A DNA stretch of 64,000 nt from Escherichia coli (GTDB taxonomy: Bacteria > Pseudomonadota > Gammaproteobacteria > Enterobacterales > Enterobacteriaceae). Position numbers and translations under genes: made by a program. The DNA is taken from assembly GCF_030013595.1 (NCBI RefSeq), contig NZ_CP122768.1. One strand, written 5' to 3'. Positions 1-60,170 of the stretch are shown one piece after another; the first letter of the stretch is position 1; each line of letters starts with the position of its first letter. A model generated the notes under the pieces. The model was not told the origin of the DNA. It saw nothing but the letters and a program-made list of their open reading frames with translations, and did no database searches.

Positions 1-837
1 TTCAATACCGTCTGCGCCGAGAGAAATAGAGAAATCGGGGTCATCTTTAACGGCCTGACCATTACTGTAAACGGGCTTTTTAATTCCTGCCGCGTTAGCA
101 ATGTCGAGTGAATAATTGAGGCGCTGAATGTTTGCATCAAGTTGATTTTTCGTTTTAATGCGGTCCTGAGCCAGTTTTTCTTTTTCAAACTGGGTTTTGA
201 TCTCCAGTTTATTACGGACGTTTTCTATCGACTCTTTCACCACCAACGCAGAGATATAATCGATATACCCGCTCAAAACGGTCTGCGCCTCTTCACTGGT
301 TGGCGCGGTAAAACTTAGCGTCCAGGAGGTATACAGTGACGGTTCATCTTTTTTCTTACTGGCATTGTCATCAACCGCTTTCATTTTTTCGCTCAATGCG
401 ACAATTGCGCGATGCAAATCCAGTTCGTCGATTTTCGCCTCTTTTAATTGGTCCATCACATAAGGTGTTGAGCGCAGGTACTCTTCCAGCAAGCTAACTG
501 ACTGAAACTTCTTGATAAACAGGTTAAATGCTTCTGTACGATCAATTTTGATATCCAGATCCAGCACACGAAGCTTAGTGAATGTTTTCTCAAGCGCCTG
601 CCACTGAACAGGTTCTGGAGGCGTGACAACCGCCGCGCTGGTCCATTTTTGCGGCAGGATGAAAGAGATCAGTAAACCTGCGCAGGCAAACGCAAAAACG
701 ACCGCCATGACCGTTTTTTTGGCCCGCCATAAAACTTCAATTAGATTAAGTAAATCAATTTCATTATTACTGGGCGACGCCAGAGGATACTCGGGAAAAT
801 GAGCGTCACTTCCCTGTTTAATATTCAGTGATGACAT
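1..837 (-). CDS. fepE: FepE / Wzz-like polysaccharide co-polymerase (ferric enterobactin transport protein FepE), 3' end outside window
   Basis: Minus-strand reading frame from ATG at 835-837 runs off the window start; translation begins MSSLNIKQGSDAHFPEYPLASP..., recognised as FepE. Not in ORF track because no stop is inside the window. Confidence 0.8.
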   Translation of the reverse strand, partial: MSSLNIKQGSDAHFPEYPLASPSNNEIDLLNLIEVLWRAKKTVMAVVFAFACAGLLISFILPQKWTSAAVVTPPEPVQWQALEKTFTKLRVLDLDIKIDRTEAFNLFIKKFQSVSLLEEYLRSTPYVMDQLKEAKIDELDLHRAIVALSEKMKAVDDNASKKKDEPSLYTSWTLSFTAPTSEEAQTVLSGYIDYISALVVKESIENVRNKLEIKTQFEKEKLAQDRIKTKNQLDANIQRLNYSLDIANAAGIKKPVYSNGQAVKDDPDFSISLGADGIE

Positions 838-1004
838 GGGGTATAACCTGAAAATGAGTCCAATAGGGGGAAATCTCCACGGCGCTCACTTTACCAGTTG
901 GTGAGAATTATCCGAAGCTGAAGTTTGTAAATTCCTTCCACTGAATGCAACATTCACTCTATTTAAGAGAAATATCCACCAAACTTATAAATTAAATAAA
1001 TGAT

Positions 1005-1052: not shown

Positions 1053-4000
1053 TTACCTGTTTAGCGTAGCGCGAATAATCGGCCCAATTTTTTCAAACGC
1101 CCCTGGAGAGATAATATCCACATGCGCACAATCCTGACGATAGATATCCAGCTCCGCAATCCACGGCGACCAGGCGCGTTCGGGACTCATACCTTGCTGA
1201 AGCGTGCGTTCAGCAACAAACAGCGTCGCTTTACCGTCAAACGGTACGCTATGAGCAGTCGTCAGCAGGCGCACAGCATCAGCGTAGTTGCCTTCAATGG
1301 TGGTAAACAACTCCGTTGAAGTACTTCCCTGCTGTGCCGCCAGGAAGGCCTCGCGCTCGCGGTTAATCTCCGCCAGCACTTCCGGATCCAGACCATTAGC
1401 TTCTTTTTCCTGCCAGTTTTGCGTTTCTGGCGGCCAGGTATCCAGCAAGCCAAGAAATGCCACCTGTTCGCCACGGGCACGCAGTCGCGCCGCAATGCCC
1501 TGCGCCAGCGTACCGCCAAGTGAATAACCCAGCAGGTAATATGGGCCGTGCGGTTGTTGTTCAAGTAACGTTGCCAGATGCGCTTCGCAGACTTCATCCA
1601 GATTTGCCGCCGTCTGCATGGGGCCACTGGGGCGCGGCGACTGAATGCCGATAATCGACCATTGTGGATCGAGATAACGCGAGAGCACGCTGAACTGCCA
1701 GGCAAAACCGGAGGCCGGATGGAAACAAAACAGCGTCGGGCCATTACCTTCACGCAACGGCAGAATGGTTTCGAATCCCATGCGCCGGGAGCTGTCTTCT
1801 TCCCCATCAATAATCGTTGCCAGTTTAGCGACGGTTGACGCAACCATCACCTGCCCCGGCGTCACCTGACGGGCAAACTGCCGACTTAACTGCGCTGCCA
1901 GTTTCATTGCCAGTAGTGAATGACCGCCAAGCGCGAAGAAATCAGCATCGGCATCCTGCACGTCACAACCCAGCAACGACGAGAATGCCGCGGCGATAAT
2001 CGTTTCACTGCCCGCTTTCGGCGTACGCCCCGGTGCTTGTGCCTTCAGTTCAGGCAACGGTAAGGCTTTGCGATCCAGCTTGCCGTTGGCGCTAAGCGGC
2101 AACTGCGGAAGTTGCAGCAGAACCACGGGCACCATATGCGGTGGCAATGTTTCGCGCAACTGCGCCTGCAATGCAGTGGTATCCAGCGGCAGGCCTGATT
2201 GCGACACCAGATACCCAACCAACTGACGCGCATCGCCTCCCGTTGCGGCAGCCTGGTTAATGACGCAGGCGTGGGTCACGGCCTGTTCAACGTCCGGCAG
2301 CGCCTGCATCACGCGATCGATTTCGCCCAGTTCGATACGCTGCCCGCGAATTTTTAGCTGATCGTCACTGCGCCCGAGGTACTCCACCGCGCCGTTATCC
2401 AGCCAGCGGGCAACGTCTCCGGTACGGTACATCCGTTCACCAGGGGCAAAAGGATCGGCAATAAAGCGACTGGCGGTCAGATCGGGTCGTCCAAGATACC
2501 CCTGCGCCAGTTGAATACCGGTGAGATAGAGATCACCTGCCACACCCGGCGGCACCGGATGCATCATCGCATCAAGAATACGCAGGCCCGTATTCCACAC
2601 CGGATAACCAATCGGCACACTGCTGCCGCGCACCTGTGCCAGTTCCTCGCCAAAAGCCGGATACCAGCTGACATCTACCGCCGCTTCCGTCGGGCCATAT
2701 AGATTATGCAACGGCACGCTGGTTAACTGTTGCCATTCGCGGCATAAATCAGCGGGTAAGGCCTCACCACTACAGAAAACCTGTTTCAACGTCGCGCAAT
2801 TCTGACGAGCGGTTTGCGGAGTCAGCGGTGCAACAAATGCCGCCAGCATCGACGGCACAAAGTGCGTGGTCGTTACGCCATATTCGGCAAAGAATTGCTG
2901 CATAGCGAGCGGGTCGCGGTGCGCTTCCGGTTCAGCCATCACCAGTTTAGCCCCGGCAATAAACGGCCAGAAAAACTCCCACACCGAGACATCAAAACTG
3001 CACGGCGTTTTTTGGGCAACGATATCATCGCCTGTAAGCGGGTAGTGGTTTTGCATCCAAAGCAAGCGGTTAACGATAGCCGTCTGCCCGACCATTACCC
3101 CTTTTGGTCTGCCGGTGGAACCGGAGGTAAAGATGATATAAGCCGTGTGGTGCGGTTGTGAAAGTTGCAGCGGCGCACTGCCCTGCGGTGTAAGCGGGGC
3201 GTTATAGCAAAGGCTGGTTAAATCTGGAACATCGGCAAAGCGCGGCAGTTGATCGTCGGTGGTGATTAACAGCGACGGACGCGCATCTTCCAGCATCATT
3301 TTCAGGCGATCGTCCGGATAGCCGGTATCCAGCGGTAACCAGGCCGCACCTGTTTCAACAATCGCATGTAGTGCCAGAGTCAAAAAGACCGAGCGCGGTA
3401 GCGCCACCGCCACGCTGTCGCCTGGTTTAACGCCGCGCTCACGCAGCAGATTCGCCAGCGCCACCACCTGCTCGCGCATTTCCCGATAGCTGAACAGATA
3501 ACGCGCATCTGCCAGCGCCGGAGCATCCGGTGTTTTTGCCGCTTGTTCTGCCACCAGCGCGCTCAGCGTGGTTTCTGGAATCTCAACCTGAGTGGCGTTG
3601 ATCTGCGCCAGCTGCACATATTCACCTGGCAGCATAATATCGACATCGCCGCACAACAGCGCCGGATCCGCGGCGAACTGGGCAATCAGCATTTTCAGGC
3701 GTTCAGCATGTTGAATTAACGTTGGCTCATCGTAACGCTGTTTATTGGCGAGGATCTCAATACTCAAATCACCGTGTTCATCCGGGAACAGGGCCAGTTC
3801 AAGGTCATTAACCGGACCGGTTGCCAGGGTATGGGTTTGCGTCTGAACACCAGGAATATCCAGTTGGTAATCAAATACCTTGATATTGAGTACCGGACCG
3901 AACAGCGGTTCCTCTCCTGCCGCTCGCCCGCTGTCACGGACAATTTGTTCGGCATCGTAACGTTGATGGCGGCGCATTTTTTTCAGTTGTGCTGCCAGTC

Positions 4001-17230: not shown

Positions 17231-20200
17231 TTATTTCCGTACCCGATGTCGGTGCAGCCACATCAGCTTATACGCCGCCGGGATAATAAACAGCGACAGC
17301 AAAGGCGCGGTGATCATGCCGCCAATCATCGGCGCGGCAATCCGGCTCATCACCTCTGAACCTGCTCCCGTTCCCCACAGAATCGGCAGCAGACCAGCGA
17401 TAATCACCGCCACCGTCATCGCTTTCGGGCGCACGCGCAGGACCGCGCCGTGATACAACGCCTCATCCAGCTTCTGCTCGCTGAATGTTTGCGGATTATT
17501 CAACGACGGCTCGGCCTCTATGGCGTGACGTAAATACATCAGCATCACCACGCCAAATTCGGCGGCGACCCCGGCAAGGGCAATAAAACCGGTGCCCGTC
17601 GCCACGGAAAGATGAAAGCCCATCCACCACAGCAACCAGATGCCACCCACCAGCGCAAACGGTACGCTGCTGATAATCAGCAACGCTTCGCCCACCCGAC
17701 GGAACGCCAAATACAACAGCACGAAGATGATCATCAACGTCATCGGCACCATGAGTTTCAGCTTATGGTTGGCGCGTTCCAGTAGCTCGAACTGCCCGGA
17801 GAATGCCACGCTGGTGCCCGGTTTTAACTGTACTTTTTCAGCTATCGCTTTTTGCAGATCGTGAACCACCGACACTATGTCACGATCGCGGGCATCGATA
17901 TAAATCCAGCTCGTCGGGCGCGCATTCTCGGTTTTCAGCATCGACGGTCCGGTAGAGACTTTAACGTCAGCCACGTCTGCCAGGGTGATTTGCTGCTTCA
18001 TCGGCGTCAGAATCGGCAACTGGCGCAGCGCCTGCGGACTATCGCGCCAGCTTTGCGGATAACGCAGATTAATTGGATAACGGGCAATCCCTTCCACCGT
18101 TTCGCCAACCATCGCCCCGCCCACCGCAGATGTCACAAACAATTGCACATCCGCCACCGTCATACCGTAACGCGCGGCTTTTTCACGGTTAATCTCAACG
18201 TTGATATAGCGCCCACCTTCCAGACGCTCGGCAAGCGCAGAAGCTACGCCTGGCACCGTTCGCGCCACTTCTTCAATTTGCTCCGCCATCGCGTCGATAT
18301 CCGCCAGCACAGTGCCGGAAACTTTAATGCCGATGGGGCTTTTAATGCCGGTTGAGAGCATATCGATACGGTTACGAATTGGCGGCACCCACAGATTCGC
18401 CAGCCCCGGCAGACGCACGGTGTTATCCAGTTCCTCAATGATTTTGTCCATCGTCATGCCTGGCCGCCACTGATCTTGTGGCTTAAGCTGGATGGTCGTT
18501 TCTACCATCTCCAGCGGAGCAGAATCGGTGGCGGTTTCCGCTTTCCCGGTTTTGCCAAATACCCGCGCCACTTCAGGTACGCTCATAATCAGCTTGTCGG
18601 TTTTTTGCAGCATACTCGCCGCCTCTGCTGCGGAAATCCCCGGCAGCGTCGATGGCATATACAACAAGTCGCCTTCATTGATCTGCGGTAAAAATTCCCC
18701 GCCAACTTTATTGAGCGGCCAGAGAACCGTCAGCACCGAAAGCGCTGCCACCAGCAGCGTGGTTTTTGGCCAGTGCAGTACTTTCAGCAACAGCGGATGA
18801 TAAGCACGAATCAAAAAGCGATTGAGCGGGTTACTGCTTTCTGGCGGAATTTTGCCACGGATCCAGTAACCCATCAGGATAGGGATCACTATGATCGCCA
18901 GCAGCGCCGCACCCGCCATCGCATACGTTTTGGTGAACGCCAGCGGGCCAAACAGACGCCCTTCCTGCCCTTCCAGGGTGAAGATCGGGATAAACGACAA
19001 CGTGATAATCAGCAGACTGATAAACAACGCCGGACCCACTTCAACAGACGCATCGGTGATCACCTGCCAGCGCGTTTTATTATCCAGCGTGGCGTCAGGA
19101 TGCTGGTGCTGCCACTCTTCCAGCCGTTTATGCGCATTCTCGATCATGACGATAGCGGCATCGACCATCGCCCCGACGGCAATCGCAATGCCGCCCAGCG
19201 ACATAATATTGGCGTTCAGTCCCTGAAATTGCATGACAATAAAAGCAATACACAACCCCAGCGGCAACGAAATAATCGCCACCAGCGCCGAGCGCACATG
19301 CCAGAGAAACAGCGCACAGACTACCGCCACCACAATAAACTCTTCCAGCAACTTGCCGCTGAGGTTGTCGATGGCGCGGTCAATGAGCTGGCTGCGATCG
19401 TATGTTGTAACTATCTCCACGCCTTCCGGCAGACTACTTTTCAGCGTTTCCAGTTTGTCTTTCACGGCGGCGATCACTTCTCGGGCGTTTTTGCCGGAGC
19501 GCAGGATCACCACCCCGCCCGCCACTTCGCCTTCGCCGTTCAGTTCGGCAATGCCCCGGCGCATCTCCGGGCCAATCTGGACCTTCGCAACATCGCGCAG
19601 ATAAACGGGCACGCCATTTTCACTGGCTTTTAAAACGATGTGATTAAAGTCGTCGAGCGTTTGCAGATAGCCGCTGGCGCGCACCATATATTCCGCTTCC
19701 GCCAGTTCGATCGACGAACCGCCCGCTTCCTGGTTTGAAGCATCCAGCGCGCTTTTTACTTCGGCGAGACTGATGCCATATTGCGCCAGGCGCTGAGGAT
19801 CGATAACCACCTGATACTCTTTCACCACACCGCCTACCGACGCCACTTCCGCAACGTCAGGAATGGTTTTCAGCTCATATTTGAGAAACCAGTCCTGCAA
19901 TGAGCGTAAATCGGCAAGATCGTGCTTACCGCTGCGATCCACCAGTGCATATTCATAGATCCAGCCAACACCCGTGGCATCTGGCCCCAGCTCGGCGCTG
20001 ACTCCCGCAGGGAGCTTACCCTGTACCTGGTTGAGGTACTCCAGCACCCGCGAACGCGCCCAGTACGGATCGGTGCCATCTTCGAAAATGACATACACAT
20101 AAGAGTCGCCAAACTGCGAGAAACCGCGCACAGTCTTCGCGCCAGGCACCGACAACATGGTGGTGGTTAGCGGATAAGTCACCTGATTTTCAACGATTTG

Positions 20201-20374
20201 CGGTGCCTGACCGGGATAGCTGGTTTTAATAATCACCTGCACATCGGAGAGATCCGGCAGCGCATCCACTGGCGTGTTAATGATGGTCCAGGTGCCCCAG
20301 ATACTCAGAAACAACGCGCCCATCAGTACCAGAAAACGGTTCGCCACCGAGCGACGAATAATCCATTCAATCAT
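17231..20374 (-). CDS. cusA: RND copper/silver efflux pump, inner-membrane transporter CusA
   Basis: 1047-aa [32 protein letters not shown]... Confidence 0.95.
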
Positions 20375-20385
20375 TGGTTATTCCC

Positions 20386-21609
20386 TCAATGCGCATGGGT
20401 AGCACTTTCAGAGCGAATCCGCTCCAGTGCGCCAGAAATATTGGCTTCGGAATCAATCAGGAACAGGCCGCTGGAAACCACCTTTTCACCTTCCGCCAGA
20501 CCAGAGCGTAACGCGGTGACGCCTTGCGATGCCTGGAAAACGGCAACGCGTTTCGGTACAAAGCGCCCGTCGGCATCAACGGTAATCACCCGCTGTTCGC
20601 TGCCGGTATCAATCAGCGCTTGTGACGGAATGAGCAGCATCGGTTCGCTGGCGGTGTTGAGTTGCAACCAGGCGTTCATTCCCGGCTTTAGCGCCTCGTC
20701 GGTGTTGTCGACTTCCAGGCGCAACTGCAGCGTGCGGGTCGCGGCATCCACGCCAGGTAGTAGCGTCCATTTGCGAATGGTGAGTGTTTTATCCGGTCGC
20801 GCCGGAACGGTGAGCGTAAACTGCGAGGCATCTTTCACCAGCCAGGCGATGGACTCCGGGATCGCAGCAGTGACCCACACCGGATCCATACCCTGAATTT
20901 TCGCTACCACGTTATCTTTGGCGATATTCATTCCCGCGCGCAGATCAAACGCGGTGATCACGCCATCAATGGGTGCTTTGAGCGTAAAGCGAGTCTGGAT
21001 TTTTTGCGTGGCAATCAGGCGGCGAATATCCGCCTCCGGCATTCCCGCCAGTCGCAGTCGCTCAAGAATGCCTTCAGTCTGGGTCGCCGTACCGCCGGTT
21101 TCGCGCAGCAGTAAATACTCACTCTGCGCTTCCACCCAGTCAGGAATGGTCAGGTCGAGAAGCGGCGCGCCCTTTTGTACTTTATCGCCCACGGTAAGCG
21201 GATACACCTTGTCGATAAACCCGGCGGCGCGGGCCTGCACAATGGCATACTGATACTCGTTGTAACTGACATTCGCCGGGAAACTCTGGGAAAAAGTCAG
21301 CGGCCCGCGCGTGACGGTAGCCGTTTTCACCCCCAGATTCTGCGTCTGAGTCGGGTCAATGCGCACACCAGACGCAGAACTCTCTTCATCGGCATATTTC
21401 GGCACCAGATCCATATCCATAAACGGCGATTTACCTGGTTTATCGAACCGCGTATTGGGATACATCGGGTCGTACCAGAATAATATTTTACGTTCTGCGG
21501 TCGACGTTTTTTCTGCGGGCGGTTCCGCCTTTGCAAACCAGGTAAAACCTGCCGCAGAAATAATACCGCCCGCGATCATGCTGCCGATAATAAGCGCGAT
21601 TTTTTTCAT
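20386..21609 (-). CDS. cusB: Copper/silver efflux membrane fusion protein CusB
   Basis: 407-aa ORF MKKIALIIGSMIAGGIISAAGFTWFAKAEPP... Confidence 0.95.
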   Translation of the reverse strand: MKKIALIIGSMIAGGIISAAGFTWFAKAEPPAEKTSTAERKILFWYDPMYPNTRFDKPGKSPFMDMDLVPKYADEESSASGVRIDPTQTQNLGVKTATVTRGPLTFSQSFPANVSYNEYQYAIVQARAAGFIDKVYPLTVGDKVQKGAPLLDLTIPDWVEAQSEYLLLRETGGTATQTEGILERLRLAGMPEADIRRLIATQKIQTRFTLKAPIDGVITAFDLRAGMNIAKDNVVAKIQGMDPVWVTAAIPESIAWLVKDASQFTLTVPARPDKTLTIRKWTLLPGVDAATRTLQLRLEVDNTDEALKPGMNAWLQLNTASEPMLLIPSQALIDTGSEQRVITVDADGRFVPKRVAVFQASQGVTALRSGLAEGEKVVSSGLFLIDSEANISGALERIRSESATHAH

Positions 21610-36136: not shown

Positions 36137-36442
36137 TCAATATACATTTTGCACCTTCGAGATAGTAATGGCTGTTACTGTAACATGGGTTACAAACAGC
36201 TTCATACCCAGAGCTACTGATGTATCAACACGATTCAACAATACCCGATATTTATTCCATGCCTCCAGCAACGATCTTTCTTCCTCCGTTGCGATTTCCA
36301 GATCTACAGCATCCTGCAGTGGCGCAATATACTCACTGAATTCCTGGATGTAGAACTGTGTGGTGACGGTCTTCCAGCCATTCGGCTCCTGCTGTATCGA
36401 AGCATACCAGGCTATTTCAATATCGCTATGCTGCGGCAGCAT
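36137..36442 (-). pseudogene. tfaX: Tail fibre assembly protein fragment (Tfa C-terminal region fused to unrelated sequence)
   Basis: 101-aa ORF; residues ...[39 protein letters not shown] match the C-terminal conserved block of the full Tfa at 37222..37806; the rest does not. Confidence 0.6.
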
Positions 36443-36498: not shown

Positions 36499-37167
36499 AT
36501 GGTGAAATTAATGAAAAAAAACACAGATGATGGGGCTAAAATTTACACACCACTTACCCTAAAGCTTTATGACTGGTGGGTTTTGGGAGTATCAAATCGG
36601 CTTGCATGGGGATGTCCTACAAAGGAACACCTTCTTCCACACTTTCTGGAACATTTAGGTAACAACCATCTGGATATTGGTGTTGGAACTGGGTTTTACC
36701 TTACTCACGTACCTGAGAGTAGTCTGATATCTTTAATGGATTTGAACGAAGCTAGCCTGAACGCGGCATCTACAAGGGCTGGGGAATCAAAAATTAAACA
36801 TAAAATTAGCCATGATGTTTTTGAACCTTATCCCGCGGCGTTACATGGTCAATTTGATTCCATTTCCATGTTTTACCTTCTTCACTGCCTGCCTGGAAAT
36901 ATATCTACAAAAAGCTGTGTAATACGCAATGCGGCGCAGGCCTTAACTGACGATGGAACTCTATACGGAGCCACAATTCTTGGCGATGGAGTTGTGCACA
37001 ATAGCTTCGGTCAAAAACTGATGCGCATTTACAATCAGAAAGGCATCTTTTCAAACACAAAAGATTCCGAAGAAGGCTTAACACATATACTCTCAGAGCA
37101 TTTCGAGAATGTTAAAACCAAGGTTCAAGGTACTGTAGTAATGTTTTCCGCTTCAGGGAAAAAATAG
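36499..37167 (+). CDS. ybcY: Class I SAM-dependent methyltransferase (YbcY-like prophage cargo)
   Basis: 222-aa ORF with motif DIGVGTGF (SAM-binding motif I); encoded opposite to the flanking tail-fibre genes; start codon uncertain. Confidence 0.65.
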   Translation: MVKLMKKNTDDGAKIYTPLTLKLYDWWVLGVSNRLAWGCPTKEHLLPHFLEHLGNNHLDIGVGTGFYLTHVPESSLISLMDLNEASLNAASTRAGESKIKHKISHDVFEPYPAALHGQFDSISMFYLLHCLPGNISTKSCVIRNAAQALTDDGTLYGATILGDGVVHNSFGQKLMRIYNQKGIFSNTKDSEEGLTHILSEHFENVKTKVQGTVVMFSASGKK

Positions 37168-37221: not shown

Positions 37222-37806
37222 TTACTCCCTGACAGGGTTCGTAGGCCACTCAATATCAGGTGCAGTTGATGTATCAACACGGTTCAGCAACACCCGATAC
37301 TTTTTCCAGGCTTCCAGCAACGAGGTTTCTCCCTCCGTTGCGATTTCCAGATCTGCAGCATCCTGAAGTGGCGCAATATGCTCACTGGCTACCTGCATCA
37401 GGCTGTTTTTTGTTTCTTCCGCCTCCCGGATCCGGAACAGTTTTTCTGCTTCTGCATCTTTCACCCAGGTTGTGCCGTTCCACTTCTGAAACTCCCCTTC
37501 CGGGGATAACCAGGTGACATTTTCCGGTAATGAGCCGAGTTCAGAAATAAATAACGCGTCGCCGGAAGCCACGTCATAGACGGTTTTACCCCGATGGTCT
37601 TCAACGAGATGCCACGATGCCTCATCACTGTTGAAAACAGCCACAAAGCCAGCCGGAATATCTGGCGGTGCAATATCGGTACTGTTTGCTGGCAGACCTG
37701 TATGAGGCGGAATATATGCGTCACCTTCACCAATAAATTCATTAGTTCCGGCCAGCAGATTATAAATTTTTATGGTCCGTGGTTGTTCACTCATTCTGAA
37801 TGCCAT
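37222..37806 (-). CDS. tfa: Tail fibre assembly protein (lambda Tfa-like)
   Basis: 194-aa [42 protein letters not shown]... with C-terminal conserved block; start overlaps stf stop. Confidence 0.9.
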
Positions 37807-40800
37807 TATGCAAGCCTCACAATATAGTTAAATGCGATGTTTTTGACGGTGTTTTCCGCGTTACCAGCAGCGTTAACGGTGATGGTGTGTCCATGTGAGC
37901 CAATCGCAACCGAGTGCGTATGAGCACCAATACCGACAGTATGTGCGTGTGCACCTGCGCTTGCAGCAGTGCCGGACAGTGAGTGGGTATGTGCGCCAGC
38001 AGATGATGTTGCATAGTTTTGATTATGCACAACAGACAATCTTGTTGATGCACTACCAGCACCGGAGTTAGCACTAGCCGTGTTCACGTTGGCTAGTGAG
38101 TGTGTGTGTGCTCCAGCCGAGTTTGTAGAGCCGCTCACACTGTGTGTATGTGCCCCGGTGTTATTCGTAGATTTAGTGCCGTAATCAAACGACGATGTGG
38201 TTTTCGTACCCAAATCCGTACTTGATGCGCTGGCGCTGTGGGTGTGCGATTTAATGCCGTCCTGTTCCTGAGACAATACGGCACGACCACTGGCGGGCTT
38301 GCCCTTAATCGTCCAGCCACGCATATCAGGGATCACGCCTGACGGATAAGCAACTGCAAGTTTCGGGTATGCAGATTTGTCAAAAGTCTGCCCCTGCATC
38401 AGGGCATAACCAGACGGAACGGTATCTGATGGCCACGGAATTGGTGCGCCAACTGGGTAGCTTTCTGGTGGAAGATTTTTCGAGGTATAAACTTCTGCCC
38501 AGCCTTCCTCAAAACCATAGCCATCTCTTGAGGAACGGTAGAACAGACCTCCATTTCTGTAATGCGCCTTCATCTGCAGGGTCCGGCAACTTCCGACTCC
38601 GGTATAGAAGTTAACCAGAATATAGCTGTCGCCAGAGCGGGTGACATTGTAAGCGCCTGATTCGGCATTCCAGGGAACGCCACCATCCGCATCGGCATAT
38701 GTATCCGTTGCCCTTCTGGCAAAAGCAGCCACATGCGCGGCGGTTAAAGTAATATCTTTTGAACCATCAAACTCAACCCCAGAAACCAGTCTTGGCGTTT
38801 GCAGCTTTGTTGCTGTCAATGCGTTACCGTTCAGACTTGCAGACAGTTTGGTTCCAATAACCAGTTCGCCGGTTGCGTTATCAATAGCAAACGGTCTTAA
38901 TGTATTCCAGCCACCATAAACATCACCTTGATTGGTAAGCAGCAGGTAAGTTTTAGCGCCATCATTACGCCATAATGCCCCATACTCCCCACCTATCATT
39001 CGAATCTGATTACCACCACGCGCTACAATTTCGTCTGTGGCAAAAAGTTTTTTGCACGACAAGTTATCGTTAACGATTAACGAATGGGACTCATAAAAAC
39101 CACGCCCACTCTTAAAATCAAGGATAACGTCCGCCGCGATACATTCAGTCGCTGGAATTGTTGCCCCAAACTTATAGGTCGTATCATTAACAACGAGATC
39201 AGCACCAGGTGCGGATATTGACAGGCCATCTTCGATAAACGCAAAAACAGGGAAAGCAGCGCCATCAACATAGAACACAGAGCGCAAATCATCGCCCTTA
39301 TTACTCATCATTATTGAGTGGATGGCTCGTTCATTGTTTTGATATTGCCAGAACATTCCATAAGCATAACGCCCCCTGTCAGTCCAGCCACCAGGCATAA
39401 CAAATCCGTTAAACTCGCAGTTATTCATCGGATCGCCTGCGGTTCGCGTTGCCGTGGTGATAATGACCCTTGATGCCAGTTCGCTTACTGAGCCAGCAGA
39501 ACGCATAACAACAACAGGGTAATATTTTCCAGATGTTGCACCTGCAGGAGCGTTAACCCGCACATAACGCATACCACGCTTATCAGCAAAGTCTGTTTTA
39601 CTGACCGCGTTAATGTTGTTCAGGAAGCGTCCCTTATCGGGTATATCAGCGCCGTTCTGGTCTTTCTGCAGACGTTTCTCTGCATTGTCATAGGCTGATT
39701 TTACTGACTTTGGCGTTGCCGCCAGCGTTTCAGACGTACTGTTGGTCGCACTGCTGAGCTGTACTATCCCCTTTTTCGTCGTACTTGCATCCTCAAGCGC
39801 CACGGCGGATGCAATATCCTCTGCCCGTTTAGCTGCTGTCTCGGCGCGCGTTGCCGCGGATTCCGCCGTACTTTTGCTCTGTGCTGCCGCTGTCGCACTG
39901 CCAGCAGCCTCTGTCGCCTTCGTGGATGCCGTCGTGGCGCTGCCCTTCGCTGCTGACGCCTGTCTGGTCGCCTCATCTTTTGAAGCAGACGCAGATGATG
40001 CCGATGACGCCGCCGAACTGGCGGACGATGCCGCTGCCGTTTTTGAGGATTCTGCGCTGGTTTCCGACGCTTTCGCGTTCGTTTCGGATGTCTTCGCTGC
40101 GGATGCAGACCTCGCTGCTGCGCTGGCCTGTTCAGCGGCTTCGCCAGCCTTCGTTGTGGCTGTTGAAGCGGACAATGCAGCGCTTTCTGCCGATTTTCCG
40201 GCGGCGGTGGCACTGGCTGAGGCCTGCCCGGCACTTGTTGACGCTGCACTGGCAGACGACGCAGCCGCTGTTTTTGAGCCTGCCGCAGCTGAGGCGCTCT
40301 GTCCCGCTGCCGTTTCAGAAGACCTGGCGTTCGTCTCGGACGTTTTTGCCGCCTTCGCGGAATTTCCTGCCGCCGTTGCCGAGGAAGCTGCACTACTGGC
40401 GCTCGAGGCTGCGCTCGTTTCTGATGATTTTGCAGCCTCTTTTGAGGCCGCCGCATCCCGGGCCGAGGTCGCAGCTTCTGATGCCTTCGTGGTCGCGGTG
40501 GATGCAGATGTGGCTGCTGATTGTTGTGACGCTGAAGCATTCGTTTCTGACGTTTTCGCCGCACCGGCACTGGTGGCCGCCGCGCTTTTTGAGGACTCTG
40601 CAGCGGCAGCACTTTTTGATGCTTCAGTGGCCTTTGTTGATGCCGTTCCTGCGCTGGAAGACGCTGACTGAGCCGACGAAGCGGCCTGTCCGGCTGACGT
40701 GCTGGCTGCGCGTGCTGAGCCTGCAGCATCAGTCGCATGGGTTGCCGCCTCACGGGCAGATGTGCCGGCATCGCCGGCTGACTTCTTCGCGGCTGCCGTG

Positions 40801-41168
40801 TTCTGTGCCACCACGGACGCGTTACGCGCCACCTCTTCCACCATCAGCTCAAAACGGCGCAGTGCCTCCGGACGGGCATCATCCTCCGTCATGGCACCGA
40901 GAAAATCATTCAGCGTACCGGGTCGGGAATCTTCATACACTGTGATAGTCCCGGCATGTGACGGCGGGAATCCTTCCACCAACAGAATAACGCTGTACTG
41001 ACCGTACTCAACGTCCATACTGTAACGCCCGGCTTCATCCGGATTTTCTGAGGCCAGCGTGTTCACCACCACCGTGGTGCTGTTACGTTTTGCTTTCAGC
41101 TGGATTGTGCAGTTCTGTACCGGTTTTCCTGTGCCGTCTTTCAGTACACCTGAAATCTTTACTGCCAT
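37806..41168 (-). CDS. stf: Side tail fibre protein (lambda Stf-like), with long Ala/Ser-rich region and C-terminal HxH repeats
   Basis: ORF 37806..41174; begins (MNM)[31 protein letters not shown]...; about 480 aa of A/S/T-rich low complexity; C-terminus has repeated GAHTHS motifs. Confidence 0.9.
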
Positions 41169-41232
41169 ATTCACCCCACAAAAAAGCCCGCCTGAACCGG
41201 CGGGCTGTCATAACACTGTGTTACCTGGCTAA

Positions 41233-41832
41233 TCAGAATTTATAACCGACACCCACGATGAACCCGTCAGTGCGCCAGTCACCGCTGCCGGAGCCTTCAT
41301 AAGCGACGTCAACGGCCACGGATTCGGTCGGGTTAAACTGCACGCCAGCTCCCCACGCCAGAGACGTGTTGCTGTGGCGACCGTCATCACTTCCGGTCAG
41401 CACATCGTGCGTTTTCCCCTTGTTGTCAGTTACGCGGATATAATCTCCGGAGAAAGTCGACACACGGCTGTAAGCCATACCCGCCATCGCATACGCGCTG
41501 AACCATTCATTCACGCGCACAGACGGCCCCGCCATCACGCTGAACCAGCGGTTACGCACGGAATCTTCATGCCAGCGGGTATCGCTGTAATGCGTTTTTT
41601 GCTCATCTTCAGCGTTGGTATAACTGAATGACGTAATCAGCCCCAGCGTGTCCGTAAACTCATAACGGTATTTCACGTTAATCCCGTTCAGATTATCGCT
41701 GCCGGGAGCGTTCGTACGGGCATGAAGATACCCTGCGCTCAGTGTGGCCTGCTGCTCAGACGCCCATGCAGGCGCACCGGATACGGCCAGACAGATGGCT
41801 GCGGACAAAATGGCTGCACAAACTTTACGCAT
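41233..41832 (-). CDS. lom: Lom outer-membrane protein (Ail/Lom family; prophage moron)
   Basis: 199-aa ORF with signal peptide MRKVCAAILSAAICLAVSGAPAWA and beta-barrel-like C-terminus ending GYKF. Confidence 0.9.
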   Translation of the reverse strand: MRKVCAAILSAAICLAVSGAPAWASEQQATLSAGYLHARTNAPGSDNLNGINVKYRYEFTDTLGLITSFSYTNAEDEQKTHYSDTRWHEDSVRNRWFSVMAGPSVRVNEWFSAYAMAGMAYSRVSTFSGDYIRVTDNKGKTHDVLTGSDDGRHSNTSLAWGAGVQFNPTESVAVDVAYEGSGSGDWRTDGFIVGVGYKF

Positions 41833-41899
41833 AATTACCTCTCGCTTTTCTGCAATAAAAAAGGCGCCATTTCTGGCGCCCGTATATGGGTTATAAAAT

Positions 41900-44800
41900 T
41901 CAGCTGATACTGATGCCTGCGGTGGCTTTCTTCATCACCACAACCAGCAAATCGCTGATACTTGCTGTGGGATACCAGTTATTTACCAGCCATGCTGACA
42001 CCGAAAACTCCAGTGTCATGTGACCGTGACCGGCAGGCATATCAATAACACCACTGTAAATCAGCGTATTATCCAGCGCGGTACGGTTATAAATTTCAGC
42101 ACCGTTTTTCCGTACTATCAGACGGCATGAGGAGTAAATATCAGTATGCTCTTTCTCATGTTTAGCGCCGCTGAATGCCACCGCCGGAATAACAATCTGC
42201 CGGTCAAACGGCTGATCGTCATAAACCCTGACGGTGATGGTCCCTGATGGCCACCGTTCCGGTGCACGGGAGTCCCGGGGGAAAGCTTTGCCCACTGTTT
42301 TAACGAGATCGCCTTCAATCTGGTTCGCGGACAGTTTTCCCAGAACCCGACAGTTCTCGTTAATCGTGACGTTGTTGAGCGTCCCGGAGTTCGCATTCAC
42401 GTTACCGCTGATATCGGCATTTTTCGCCGTCAGCCGCCCGTCCGGTGTCAGGGAAAATGCCGGTGGATTTCCGCCGCTGGTAATGGTGGGAGCCGTCAGG
42501 CGTTTCAGGAACACGTCGTTCATGAATATCTGATCGCCCTGACCAACAAACATCGGCTTTGTGTTGCCATTCGCAGGATTAATCATCGCAATCCGGTCAG
42601 CAGCCAGAAGCACCTGACTCTGCATACCTGCTGGCGTATTCTCAATACCGGCTCCGATACCCGCAATATAAAGGCGTCCGTCCTTCATCTGCTGCAGTTT
42701 CACGGCCCACATGCTGTTCAGGTTATTATTTGTATCAACCTGAACTTTCTGTATCTGCTGGATTGCCGCGCTCTGATTTTCCAGTTTCTTATTGACGGTC
42801 TGTGTGATTTCATTGCTGACATCCGTAATGGACGTCCTGATTTCAGCCAGGTCAGGCGCAAGCTGATCGTTATCAATCTGCGTCCACAGCTCCTGAGCCA
42901 GATGGGTTTTCCCTATCTCGCCTTTGAAAAAATCCAGATAGCCGGATGCGTCATCACTCGGCTGACCGACAGCCTCCACGAATGCCGATTTGCCAACAGT
43001 GTTCACACTGCGAACGTAAAAATAATAATCATGGCCCGGCTTAATATTGATACTGGCAGCTATCCAGTACAGCGCCGTACCAAGATAGCGCGCTGTGGTT
43101 TCAACCTGCCTGATATCCGCAATCCGCTTTTCCGAGAACCAGAACTCAAACTGTACCGTCGGATCATAAACGGCAAGATGCGGCGTGGCGGTTATCTGAA
43201 AATAGCCCGGCGTCAGCTCAATCCGCGACGGTGCTGCCGGTGCGGCAATCCGGAACGATACCGATGCCGGATCGCCCTGCTGTCCCCACGCATTTACCGC
43301 CCGGACTGTCAGCCTGTAGTTCCCCAGCGCCAGCTGCCTGAAGCGGTATGTGGTTTCCGTCGTCCGGGCCGTGCTGACCAGCCGCTCACTGCCGTCATCG
43401 GCGGCCACGGTCAGGCGAAGCATAAAGCTCACACCCTTCACCACCTTCGGCGTGTCCCAGCGCGCCAGCACCTGATACTCCCCACTGTCTGCGGTGACTT
43501 CTGCGGTCAGGTGCTGCACCGCTGGCGGCGTGACACCATTCACCGTGCCGCTCTGGTCGCCGTCAAAGTGCGCCCCGTTATCCACGATGGCTTCTTTCTC
43601 CGGTACATGCTGCACGGCAGTGATGGCATACGTGCCGTCATCGTTCTCACGGATACTCACACAGCGGAACAGGCGCTGGCGCAACGTCGGCAGCTTCAGC
43701 CCCCACACGCTGTATTCTGCAACGCCGTCAGGAACACGGCTCACTTTCACCTTCACACCGTCGGTGACGGACTGAACCTCCACGCTGACCGGATTGCCAC
43801 TTCCGTCAACCAGGCTTATCAGCGTGGTACCGGAGGATGGCAGCGTGATTTCACGGTCGAGCGTCAGCGTCCGGGTCTGGCTGTTCACCGCCAGCACGCG
43901 CCCGCCGGTGCTGATACCGGCATAGTCATCATCGCAGATTTCAATGACATCGCCCGGCACATGGCGAAGCCCTTCTGCGCCCACGCTGAAATCCACGGTC
44001 TGCGTTTCCAGCAGTTCCGTTTTAATCAGCCACAGCCCGGCGCGGTGTGCCTGCCCCCGGCTGGTACAGCCAAAGGCATCCATCTTCGTAACATTACGAC
44101 CGTAACGGGCAATGGCCTGCGTATCTTCAACAAGCTCTGTCGCCGTCTCCCAGCCGTTATCCGGGTCAATCCAGTTCACCTCAACGGCATTATGGCGGTC
44201 CTTCAGGGCGCTGAAGCTGTAGCGGAACGGCGCGCCATCATCCGGCATCACCACATTACTGCGGTTATAGGTCCACACCTTATCCGACGGTCGGTCCTGC
44301 ACGAACGTCAGCGTCTGCCCGTTCCATACCGGCATACAGCGCATCGCCGAGCAGAAATCGCTGAGCACATCCCACGCCTTACGTTGTGTGGTCAGCCAGG
44401 CATTACAGGTGATGCGCGGCTCCGTGCCGCCAAAACCGTCCGGCACCGACTGGTCGCAGTACTGGCCGATGACATACAGCGCCCATTTATCCACATCTGC
44501 CGCACCAAGACGTTTCCCCATGCCGTAGCGCGGATGGGTCAGCATATCCCACAGACACCAGGCCATGTTGTTGCTGTATGCTGGCTTAAACGTTCCATCC
44601 CAGATACCGCTGTATTGCCGCGTCTGCGGGTTATAGTTCGACGGCACCTGCAGAATGCGCCCGCGCAGATGATAATTACGGCTCACCTGCTGGCTGCCGA
44701 ACTGCTCCGAGTCCACCTGCACGCCGACCAGTGCCGTGTTCGGGTAGCACTGTTTCACATCTATAATTTCGGTGTATGACGACCAGAGCGTTTTGTTCTG

Positions 44801-45379
44801 CAGCTGGTCTGTGGTGCTGTCCGGCGTCATCCTGCGCATCCGGATACTGAACGGGCGCGGCGGCAGGTTATCCACCACCACCGAGGCCAGATACTGCGAG
44901 GTGGTTTTGCCCTTAATGGTGATGTCTTTTTCCGTCACCCAGCCACCGTTACGTTGTATCTGAACCAGCAGGCGGACTTCCGATGGATTCCTGTCACCCT
45001 TTGAGGTGGTTTCCACCAGTGCCTGCACACCGAAGGTAAAGCGCAGTCGGTCGATGTTTGCCGACGTGATGGCGCGGGTGATCGGCGTGTCGTATTTCAC
45101 TTCCGTACCCAGCACCGTCTCGGAGCCGGAGGATTCAAATCCCTCCGGCGGAGTCTGCTCCTGCTCACCAGCCCGGAACACCACCGTGACACCGGCGATG
45201 TTGGTATTCCCCTCACTGTCCAGCACCGGCGTACTGTTCAGCAGCACGCTTTTTAATCCATCCACCGGACCTTCAATCGGCCCTTCACTGATGGCATCAA
45301 TCACACTCAGCAACTGCGTGGATTTCAGGTTGTCCTTCGCTTCGCGCGGGGTATGCCCCTTACTGCTGCCTTTACCCAT
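41900..45379 (-). CDS. J: Tail tip / host-specificity protein J (central tail fibre)
   Basis: 1159-aa [50 protein letters not shown]... Confidence 0.95.

Positions 45380-56463: not shown

Positions 56464-60144
<3,681 letters not shown>

Positions 60145-60170
<26 letters not shown>

Follow-up and report, generated by a model that had tools for sequence, protein, structure and literature searches.

The window, a 64,000-nt stretch of Escherichia coli DNA, carries what is, with a probability of about 0.95, an intact stfR-type side tail fibre gene of a lambda-like prophage, the product of which would form a modular fibre. In the proposed architecture, three chains would make up one fibre, the N-terminal domain (aa 3–96) would dock it as part of the tail collar, and residues 118–460 would form a parallel alpha-helical coiled coil of 49 heptads, a thin rod of approximately 51 nm that would set the reach of the fibre. 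The middle part would be built of modules resembling Mu gpS and T4 gp34, and the C-terminal 219 aa would fold, with the help of Tfa, into a collar and six-stranded needle of the gp37 type. In this needle, the seven HxH motifs of each chain would provide six histidines per site and hold seven axial metal ions (iron in T4), and the far-end loop between the third and fourth HxH motifs, an allele-specific hypervariable part, would contact the receptor. This architecture is based on homology with Ur-lambda Stf and T4 gp37, from which we infer a trimeric fibre that binds metal, depends on a chaperone and contacts the receptor. At the same time, the gene itself is an ordinary, very common and already known side tail fibre gene of E. 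coli prophages: published work covers the gene and its family as well as the architecture of the lambda fibre and the structure of the T4 tip, and the exact protein is present in databases. The coordinates of the features are collected in Table 1.

Table 1 Features of the stf region in the window; amino acid numbers of domains refer to the 1122-aa ORF
Feature	Coordinates (nt)	Strand	Remarks
J	41900-45379	-	
lom	41233-41832	-	
stf (stfR-type) side tail fibre gene	37806..41168	-	Stop TAA at 37806-37808; ATG 41168
tfa, tail fibre assembly chaperone	37222..37806	-	Pfam Caudo_TAP, E = 9.6e-44
N-terminal collar domain (aa 3-96)	40887..41168	-	Predicted to dock the fibre on the tail
Ala/Ser/Thr-rich shaft (aa 118-460, ~343 aa)	39795..40823	-	49 unbroken heptads
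Imperfect 9-nt x 2.8 repeat (GCG TCA TCG / GCA TCA TCT / GCG TCT ...)	39988..40012	-	Encodes SAS-SAS-AS; TRF score 36
Post-coil segment (aa 443-523), phage Mu tail fibre protein S-like	39606..39848	-	PDB 5yvq, 8ju3
T4 gp34-type trimerisation domain (aa 665-764)	38883..39182	-	Pfam PF21446 Gp34_trimer, E = 7.4e-27
C-terminal receptor-binding module (aa 904-1122)	37809..38465	-	T4 gp37 tip homologue: collar domain and needle
Seven HxH motifs (SHTHS, AHTHS x4, AHAHT, SHGHT)	37887..38246	-	Putative ligands of seven axial metal ions (iron)
Hypervariable distal loop, HxH 3 to HxH 4 (aa 1026-1058)	38001..38099	-	Putative receptor-contacting tip
Spurious ORF envelope	39742..41001	both	39742-40671 (+), 39851-40945 (+), 39764-40771 (-), 40699-41001 (+)

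The stf ORF is real, and its product is 1120 aa long when counted from the ATG and 1122 aa when begun at a GTG, as in the ORF listing (37806..41174). The likely start is the ATG, which is preceded by GGGGTGA at a distance of 5 nt. RefSeq places the start of a 99.4%-identical stfR, the best genome match of the locus, at the equivalent position, and the 1120-aa product is exactly the NCBI sequence WP_282870021.1, which belongs to a 90%-identity cluster of 15,543 sequences. Since the RefSeq start and the exact NCBI product agree, the extent of 37806–41168 given for the gene in a preliminary description of this DNA is right. Full-length DNA matches at 96–99% identity are annotated as stfR followed by tfaR or tfaQ, and stf-related DNA is present in 5173 of the 5426 complete E. 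coli genomes. The product matches phrog_295, “tail fiber protein” (E = 8e-240), and contains the Pfam domains phage_tail_N, Gp34_trimer, Collar and Phage_fiber. The genes are arranged in the lambda-type order J-lom-stf-tfa, all on the minus strand, and the same order is found in the RefSeq and lambda annotations; the start of tfa overlaps the stop of stf in the sequence TAATG, exactly as in lambda. The tfa product matches the PHROG “tail fiber assembly” (E = 6.6e-99) and is 94% identical to lambda orf-194/Tfa; the chaperone is of the lambda type, whereas that of T4 is gp38. The earlier identification as a side tail fibre is thus supported by the phage_tail_N domain, the match to the lambda collar structure 9e7m, the gene order, the Tfa identity and the RefSeq name stfR; no evidence against it was found.

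The nearest well-known relative is StfR of strain K-12, the Rac-type “prophage side tail fiber protein homolog” (NP_415890.2), which has the same length (1120 aa) and architecture as the window protein and differs from it in nothing of substance; its RefSeq family is “prophage tail fiber N-terminal domain-containing protein”. The prophage in the window lies next to ompT/envY/nfrA and has intact J and lom genes upstream of stf. On the K-12 map, stfR is located at the Rac site, and the window copy is thus located elsewhere.

Another reading of the locus sees stf as a remnant decaying within a cryptic prophage, without current function and kept only through recent acquisition. It draws on an in-frame TAG (nt 58842–58844) in the large terminase gene of the same prophage, because of which this prophage may never produce virions that carry the fibre, on a Tfa fragment located nearby, and on the many E. 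coli genomes with only partial stf copies. We nevertheless regard this reading as rather unlikely, since the ORF is full length and does not differ in length from the main cluster (15,543 sequences), none of the 14 putative metal-binding histidines has been lost, and the substitutions are mostly synonymous: comparison with a 95.9%-identical allele revealed 103 synonymous and 30 non-synonymous codon differences in the stf frame. Moreover, such genes in defective prophages constitute a recombination reservoir for infecting phages (PMC3945230). An intact side tail fibre gene is therefore the preferred reading, and its domains are considered below from the N-terminus, followed by the tip and then the shaft.

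Pfam phage_tail_N (PF08400) covers aa 3–136 with E = 9.5e-72 (239.8 bits; cutoff, 26.6), and the lambda tail fibre protein collar (PDB 9e7m) matches aa 3–96 with E = 2e-51; the collar domain of lambda Stf (774 aa) is almost identical to that of window Stf. In Ur-lambda, residues 1–91 of twelve Stf chains form the collar at the gpV/gpM junction, where the homotrimeric Stf is attached as four fibres per virion (PMC12617516). By homology, window Stf would also be a homotrimer present in four fibres.

Downstream of the coil, the structures of Mu protein S (PDB 5yvq and 8ju3) match best over residues 443–523, with whole-protein E values of 4e-28 to 4e-38. The gp34-type domain also matches PDB 4uxe and 5nxf (T4 gp34) with E about 1e-11, and it sits in a middle part of approximately 240 aa that is present in window Stf and largely absent from the 774-aa lambda Stf.

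The C-terminal module is the part that window Stf shares with T4 gp37, the relationship being confined to the last 219 aa, whereas the rest of the protein is lambda-, Mu- and gp34-like. The gp37 tip structure 2XGF (chain residues 27–242) aligns with aa 904–1122 at E = 2.1e-88, with 154 of the 219 aligned positions identical (70%), and Pfam Collar (PF07484) matches aa 909–956. The collar domain, the needle, the seven HxH pairs and a C-terminal 11-residue sequence of the T4 tip are all conserved. The preliminary description had counted at least five HxH motifs at nt ~37870–38200, which was essentially right, the actual number being seven within nt 37887–38246 (aa 977, 1009, 1023, 1062, 1076, 1085 and 1094 of the 1122-aa ORF). 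Shuffling of the C-terminal 222 aa yielded a mean of 0.94 HxH motifs, and seven were reached in none of 20,000 shuffles. All 14 histidines align in register with the iron ligands of T4 gp37 (H883/885, 915/917, 929/931, 966/968, 980/982, 989/991 and 998/1000), which upholds the earlier view of these motifs as metal sites of the gp37 type. Seven irons are coordinated by such histidines in the gp37 needle (PMC6957217), and the seven motifs of window Stf are consequently putative metal-binding sites as well. Seven HxH motifs are also found in 46 of 56 distinct homologue C-termini. The lambda Stf C-terminal module is 72% identical to that of window Stf; it carries eight HxH motifs instead of seven and a longer and different distal loop. 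An AF2 monomer model of aa 901–1120, built with a 13-sequence alignment, had a mean pLDDT of 49.7 and a pTM of 0.18; it contains one long beta-hairpin (E107–129, E148–170) turning at the variable loop and, at this confidence, neither supports nor contradicts the tip fold, for which the sequence identity to the 2XGF chain is used as evidence.

The distal loop is the most changeable part of the tip. It is only 15% identical to its T4 counterpart (residues 932–964), whereas the flanking scaffold segments are 82% and 77% identical, and among homologues with an overall identity of more than 90% the loop sequence is wholly different and about 29 to 50 aa long. In T4, residues 933–949, equivalent to the loop, are essential for function (PMC6957217), and lambda Stf binds OmpC (PMC12617516). 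Because the window loop is so different from those of both T4 and lambda, neither the OmpC/LPS specificity of T4 nor the OmpC specificity of lambda can be transferred to it.

The Ala/Ser/Thr-rich stretch, which the preliminary description correctly placed at nt ~39700–40800, is shorter than the ~480 aa given there: 1100 nt encode ~367 aa, and the regular part comprises 343 aa. Windows of 30 residues with at least 60% A+S+T extend from aa 119 to aa 466 (nt 39777–40820), with a composition of 38% A, 25% S and 12% T. Far from being plain low-complexity sequence without features, the stretch is a strictly periodic series of heptads with the consensus S-A-[T/S]-x-A-x-[T/S] (S-A-x-x-A-x-x) and alanine in the two core positions. 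Of the 49 heptads, 35 have Ala at position 2 and 47 have it at position 5, where the other two have Val. A single register runs through all 49 windows without a phase break; autocorrelation peaks at lag 7 and all of its multiples up to 119 (z = 7–10), and Ala has power at periods 3.5 and 7. On this basis, the shaft is a predicted alpha-helical coiled coil about 51 nm long.

This prediction is in agreement with the structural models. The shaft is homologous to residues 102–393 of lambda Stf, which the study of Ur-lambda by cryo-EM/cryo-ET and AlphaFold3 modelling assigned to a proximal coiled coil within a fibre of three chains (PMC12617516). An AF2 monomer model of the window shaft is nearly all helix at a moderate mean pLDDT of 65 and folds back at a low-confidence break (model residues 293–302), which is taken as a monomer artefact expected of one chain out of a trimer; the Ur-lambda authors reported that AlphaFold3 misfolded the whole protein in a comparable way (PMC12617516). 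No specific account of tail fibres with alanine-rich heptads was found in a search of the literature. Like the window shaft, trimeric coiled coils with an alanine core (“alanine-zipper”), such as the Ala-rich part of the E. coli lipoprotein Lpp-56, have Ala at both heptad core positions. Lpp has a few such heptads and the window shaft has 49 consecutive ones, the likeness described here being one of heptad pattern.

The lambda shaft is of the same heptad type and is collinear with the window shaft between shared border sequence blocks; the window shaft is longer by exactly 15 heptads (105 aa). A recent internal duplication was considered as the source of these additional heptads and rejected, the best protein diagonal being 25 identical residues out of 35 at lag 112 and the best DNA diagonal just 61% over 105 nt. 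More generally, the shaft ranges from 17 to 64 heptads among homologues, mostly with whole-heptad differences. Of 19 diverse representatives, 18 (17 to 49 heptads) had a length difference divisible by 7 aa, and one allele has a 64-heptad shaft. Very close homologues show many indels that are not multiples of 7 (−12, −3, ±1, +3, +4, +40), so that whole-heptad steps are a trend of the deeper comparison and by no means obligatory.

The region had also been described as prone to in-frame expansion or contraction. It is indeed not invariant in length across homologues, and over evolutionary time the description stands; it finds no backing in the DNA itself, where the repeats are degenerate and provide no structure prone to slippage. 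A hypermutable repeat of the contingency type, in which replication slippage frequently changes the length, nevertheless has two observations in its favour. The imperfect 9-nt repeat coincides exactly with a 3-aa deletion in 10 of the 25 close-homologue clusters of different shaft length, and further small indels are scattered among close homologues. Slippage-like variation was seen just at this repeat. At the same time, the TRF and repeat searches revealed no strong tandem array and no head-to-tail high-identity DNA repeats in the gene: TRF detected two weak arrays only (9 nt × 2.8 with 81% matches and 21 nt × 2.2 with 74%), the longest exact direct repeat in 1 kb of shaft DNA is 12 nt, and the dispersed repeats are 60–81% identical, the stronger copies being spaced by multiples of 21 nt. 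The 61% identity of the best 105-nt diagonal points the same way, and the shaft has the same length as the query in 96 of 121 close homologues and a different one in 25. So, such a contingency repeat is improbable. The reading preferred here is that the shaft length evolves mainly by whole heptads, with recombination between fibre alleles as the probable main cause of length change and replication slippage in a minor role; recombination between lambda stf-tfa and Rac stfR has been shown experimentally (PMC3945230).

Alleles with near-identical collar and border sequences have 17, 18, 20, 33, 34, 45, 48, 49, 50 or 64 Ala-core heptads, which corresponds to roughly 18 to 66 nm, and the register is kept in nearly all of them. 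It may tentatively be suggested that the shaft is a heptad-quantised ruler, so that fibre reach would be selected and tunable, e.g., matched to the depth of the host's O-antigen or capsule layer, and exchanged, separately from the receptor-binding loop, through recombination in register. The data bearing on this speculative idea cover the length classes and the preserved register. For phage engineering, the modular layout of collar, shaft varying mostly by whole heptads, conserved and putatively metal-binding needle, and hypervariable loop of ~29–50 aa is a convenient template.

A low-complexity linker that is intrinsically disordered, instead of a structured shaft, is a very improbable reading of the Ala/Ser/Thr-rich stretch. 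Its composition (38% A, 25% S, 12% T) and the only moderate AF2 confidence would fit such a linker, and K-12 StfR, with 23 low-complexity regions in one protein, has been reported to be extremely unusual in this respect (PMC12695832). A disordered linker, however, would have no reason to keep a strict 7-residue register across 343 aa with Ala fixed in 35 and 47 of 49 heptads, and homologues retain this register despite large changes in length. Moreover, AF2 predicts helix throughout the shaft, and in lambda the corresponding part was modelled as a rod-like coiled coil in agreement with the side fibre in cryo-ET (PMC12617516). The stretch that is flagged as low complexity is accordingly best annotated as a regular structural rod, as the predicted coiled coil implies.

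The long spurious ORFs noticed earlier in several frames on both strands do exist, with lengths of 309 aa (+), 364 aa (+), 335 aa (−, in another frame) and 100 aa (+) over the Ala/Ser/Thr-rich region. Stop codons across nt 39795–40820 number 25, 1 and 1 in the plus frames and 0, 0 and 8 in the minus frames, i.e., four of the six frames contain none or one; this openness is a by-product of the runs of GCN, TCN and ACN codons. It is hardly credible that at least one of the three longest ORFs (309, 335 and 364 aa) represents a genuine gene overlapping stf: despite their length, the full or almost full openness of one frame per strand, and an analogous antisense “orf206b” once annotated within orf-401 of lambda, the openness follows directly from the codon content, the products are extremely biased (R/Q/P-rich or A/D/V/F-rich), 28 of the 45 allelic substitutions in the coil fall at position 3 of the stf codons, and the current RefSeq annotation of a near-identical locus contains no such gene. 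The ORFs of more than 300 aa in other frames of nt 39742–41001 should not be called genes in annotation, and the names “short-chain fatty acid transporter” and “tape measure protein” given to some family members are wrong.

The side tail fibre gene stf, of the stfR type, lies in one long ORF, 37806..41174 (-), of 1122 aa when counted from its GTG; residues are numbered on this ORF unless the 1120-aa protein is named. An ATG at 41168, 6 bases downstream of the GTG and preceded by GGGGTGA, is equivalent to the RefSeq start of a 99.4%-identical stfR, and the 1120-aa product is an exact match to NCBI WP_282870021.1; therefore, the coordinates 37806-41168 of the preliminary description were correct. 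The 90%-identity cluster of this protein holds 15,543 sequences, and stf-related DNA was found in 5173 of 5426 complete E. coli genomes, with at least 80% of the gene covered at one place in 1230 of them, and also in lambda-like phages. Every tested feature of the lambda Stf/StfR family and of the gp37-type tip was present. The preliminary finding is correct in essence, the gene being ordinary, already known and offering nothing new in kind. In NCBI, many family members carry the name “short-chain fatty acid transporter”, and fragments that of “phage tail tape measure protein”; both names have evidently spread by misannotation, for which the compositional bias of the Ala/Ser-rich region is probably responsible.

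The shaft, i.e., the regular part of the Ala/Ser/Thr-rich stretch, covers aa 118-460 (nt 39795-40823 (-)). Windows with at least 60% of these residues span aa 119-466 (nt 39777-40820), which contain 38% Ala, 25% Ser and 12% Thr and where the GC content rises to 0.60-0.64. The nucleotide range initially proposed for this region was right, but it encodes approximately 367 aa, with a regular part of 343 aa, and not “about 480 aa”. Residue-identity autocorrelation peaked at lag 7 and at all multiples of 7 up to 119 (z = 7-10), with z ≤ 2.5 at all other lags in the shaft, and Ala Fourier power was found at periods 3.5 and 7. The stretch is divided into 49 heptads with the consensus S-A-[T/S]-x-A-x-[T/S], where position 2 is Ala in 35 and position 5 is Ala in 47 and Val in the remaining two; no register shift was found across these heptads. 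Small residues at alternating 3/4 spacing form the a/d core of an alpha-helical coiled coil, and the Ala/Ser-rich region is, as predicted from its sequence, such a heptad structure. The AF2 single-chain model of aa 97-525 was helical nearly throughout (mean pLDDT 65), with one low-confidence fold-back that is regarded as a monomer artefact. An alpha-helical rod rises by about 0.15 nm per residue, and on this basis the 343-aa shaft would form a rod of roughly 51 nm.

With regard to low-complexity regions, StfR of K-12 was already described as an extreme case (PMC12695832). According to cryo-EM, cryo-ET and AlphaFold3 modelling, Ur-lambda Stf comprises collar residues 1-91, a linker, a proximal coiled coil (102-393), a hinge and a distal domain that terminates in a receptor-binding domain of the gp37 type, and its side fibres, four per virion, are trimers that bind OmpC (PMC12617516). 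Lambda Stf is collinear with the protein studied here through the collar and shaft; with two conserved border motifs taken as limits, its shaft falls short of the present one by exactly 105 aa (15 heptads).

In a deep comparison of 19 representatives of 50%-identity clusters retaining both motifs, the border-to-border distances were 135, 142, 151, 156, 247, 254 or 359 aa, and the difference from the query was a multiple of 7 in 18 of them. Counted by distinct length, this holds for five of the six values other than that of the query, so no more than about six of the events are independent. Of 120 close homologues compared, 96 had the shaft length of the query, and the others differed by -28, -7, +7 or +105 aa, but also by -12, -3, ±1, +3, +4 or +40 aa. 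Length invariance was thus not observed, the whole-heptad alleles ranging from 17 to 64 heptads in a single register, and the alleles with other indels carrying one register shift each. The commonest small variant, a 3-aa deletion (10 clusters), was located exactly at an imperfect 9-nt repeat.

TRF detected only 9-nt × 2.8 and 21-nt × 2.2 arrays in the gene. Dispersed DNA repeats in the shaft were 60-81% identical, with stronger copies at multiples of 21 nt; exact repeats did not exceed 12 nt, and identity along the best 105-nt diagonal was 61%. Since the heptads are degenerate at the DNA level, they do not make up a slippage-prone array; a “contingency repeat” reading is unlikely, as high-identity tandem repeats, its defining DNA feature, are absent. 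The claim that the region is prone to in-frame expansion or contraction holds as an evolutionary pattern and, locally, at the one short repeat, but not in the sense of such an array. In-register recombination between alleles is more likely to be the main mechanism of length change; experiments have shown lambda stf-tfa to recombine with Rac stfR (PMC3945230). The only pattern of mild interest is the mostly heptad-quantised shaft length over a nearly four-fold range; it makes a “ruler” interpretation tempting but is no demonstration of it.

The long spurious ORFs expected on both strands were indeed found: the plus strand carries one of 309 aa and one of 364 aa, and a minus frame other than that of stf one of 335 aa. 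The six frames of nt 39795-40820 contain 25, 1, 1 and 0, 0, 8 stop codons, a pattern that results from the run of GCN/TCN/ACN codons. Compared with a 95.9%-identical allele without indels, 28 of the 45 differences in the coil fell at stf codon position 3, and the whole gene showed 103 synonymous and 30 non-synonymous codon changes; therefore, stf is the coding frame. The antisense “orf206b” (2004-2624 (-), record 20147-20767) of the 1982 lambda record (J02459), located inside orf-401, the 5' part of stf, is the same kind of stop-free artefact as the ORFs at 39742-41001 of the window.

Features of the fibre protein and of its genomic surroundings
Feature	Position	Strand	Basis or remark
Mu tail fibre protein S-like segments	aa 443-523 and 814-909		
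T4 gp34-type trimerisation domain	aa 665-764		
Imperfect 9-nt repeat, 3-aa deletion site	39988-40012	-	TRF and homologue comparison
J-like tip protein, 1159 aa	41900-45379	-	
Terminator-like hairpin, J/lom gap	41862-41881	-	
Ail/Lom outer-membrane protein (lom)	41233-41832	-	
Terminator-like hairpin, lom/stf gap	41185-41206	-	
Tail fibre assembly protein (tfa), 194 aa	37222-37806	-	94% identity to lambda Tfa

Lambda Stf (774 aa) is without most of the middle part of this protein. Between the first Mu gpS-like segment and the gp34-type domain, aa 524-664 (39183-39605 (-), approximately 140 aa) gave no Pfam or PDB sequence match; they overlap the “unknown function” family PHROG 36614, whose match covers aa 456-610 in the numbering of the 1120-aa protein. 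The protein combines lambda, Mu/P2 and T-even modules in the mosaic that is classical for tail fibres, as covered by the literature on tail-fibre exchange that PMC3945230 cites.

At the C-terminus, where at least five HxH motifs had been noticed, seven are present (nt 37887-38246), against a mean of 0.94 in shuffled versions of the last 222 aa, none of 20,000 shuffles reaching seven. Their assignment to the T4 gp37 type was supported by a match of aa 904-1122 to the gp37 tip crystal structure 2XGF (E = 2.1e-88), with 154 of 219 aligned positions identical and all 14 HxH histidines aligned with gp37 H883/885, 915/917, 929/931, 966/968, 980/982, 989/991 and 998/1000. The gp37 needle holds seven iron atoms along its length, one site receiving H929 from three chains, and function depends on the histidines that bind iron as well as on residues 933-949 of the tip (PMC6957217). 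Compared with T4, the module is 82% identical ahead of HxH 3 and 77% identical from HxH 4 on, but only 15% identical in the loop of 33 residues that separates these two motifs. In homologues with an overall identity above 90%, this loop has entirely different sequences of about 29 to 50 aa in a nearly invariant scaffold; thus, it is the allele-specific element, which presumably contacts the receptor. Seven HxH motifs were retained in 46 of 56 distinct C-termini. When modelled by AF2 as a monomer, this module gave a prediction of too low confidence for use (pLDDT 49.7); this is to be expected if a single chain is taken out of an intertwined trimer.

Upstream of J-lom-stf-tfa lie lambda-type tape measure, major head, portal and terminase genes, and the prophage in the best-matching genome adjoins ompT, envY and nfrA. 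The stf stop codon and the tfa ATG overlap by one base (TAATG). GC-rich hairpins followed by T-runs on either side of lom fit a separately regulated insert (“moron”) in the tail operon. The large terminase gene (lambda gpA-like, 58245-60170 (-)) carries a single in-frame TAG at 58842-58844 (...LLRVD*AINKTY...), which splits it into 442-aa and 185-aa ORFs that match PHROG 15 one after the other. The TAG may render the prophage packaging-defective; alternatively, it may stem from a sequencing error or be an amber codon that can be suppressed. Additionally, the C-terminal fragment of a second tail fibre assembly protein (36137-36349 (-); 46 aa, 80% identity to Tfa 137-182) is separated from tfa by a 222-aa class I SAM-dependent methyltransferase ORF (36499-37167 (+)), and the two look like the remnant of an earlier fibre-module exchange and cargo, respectively, at the prophage end.
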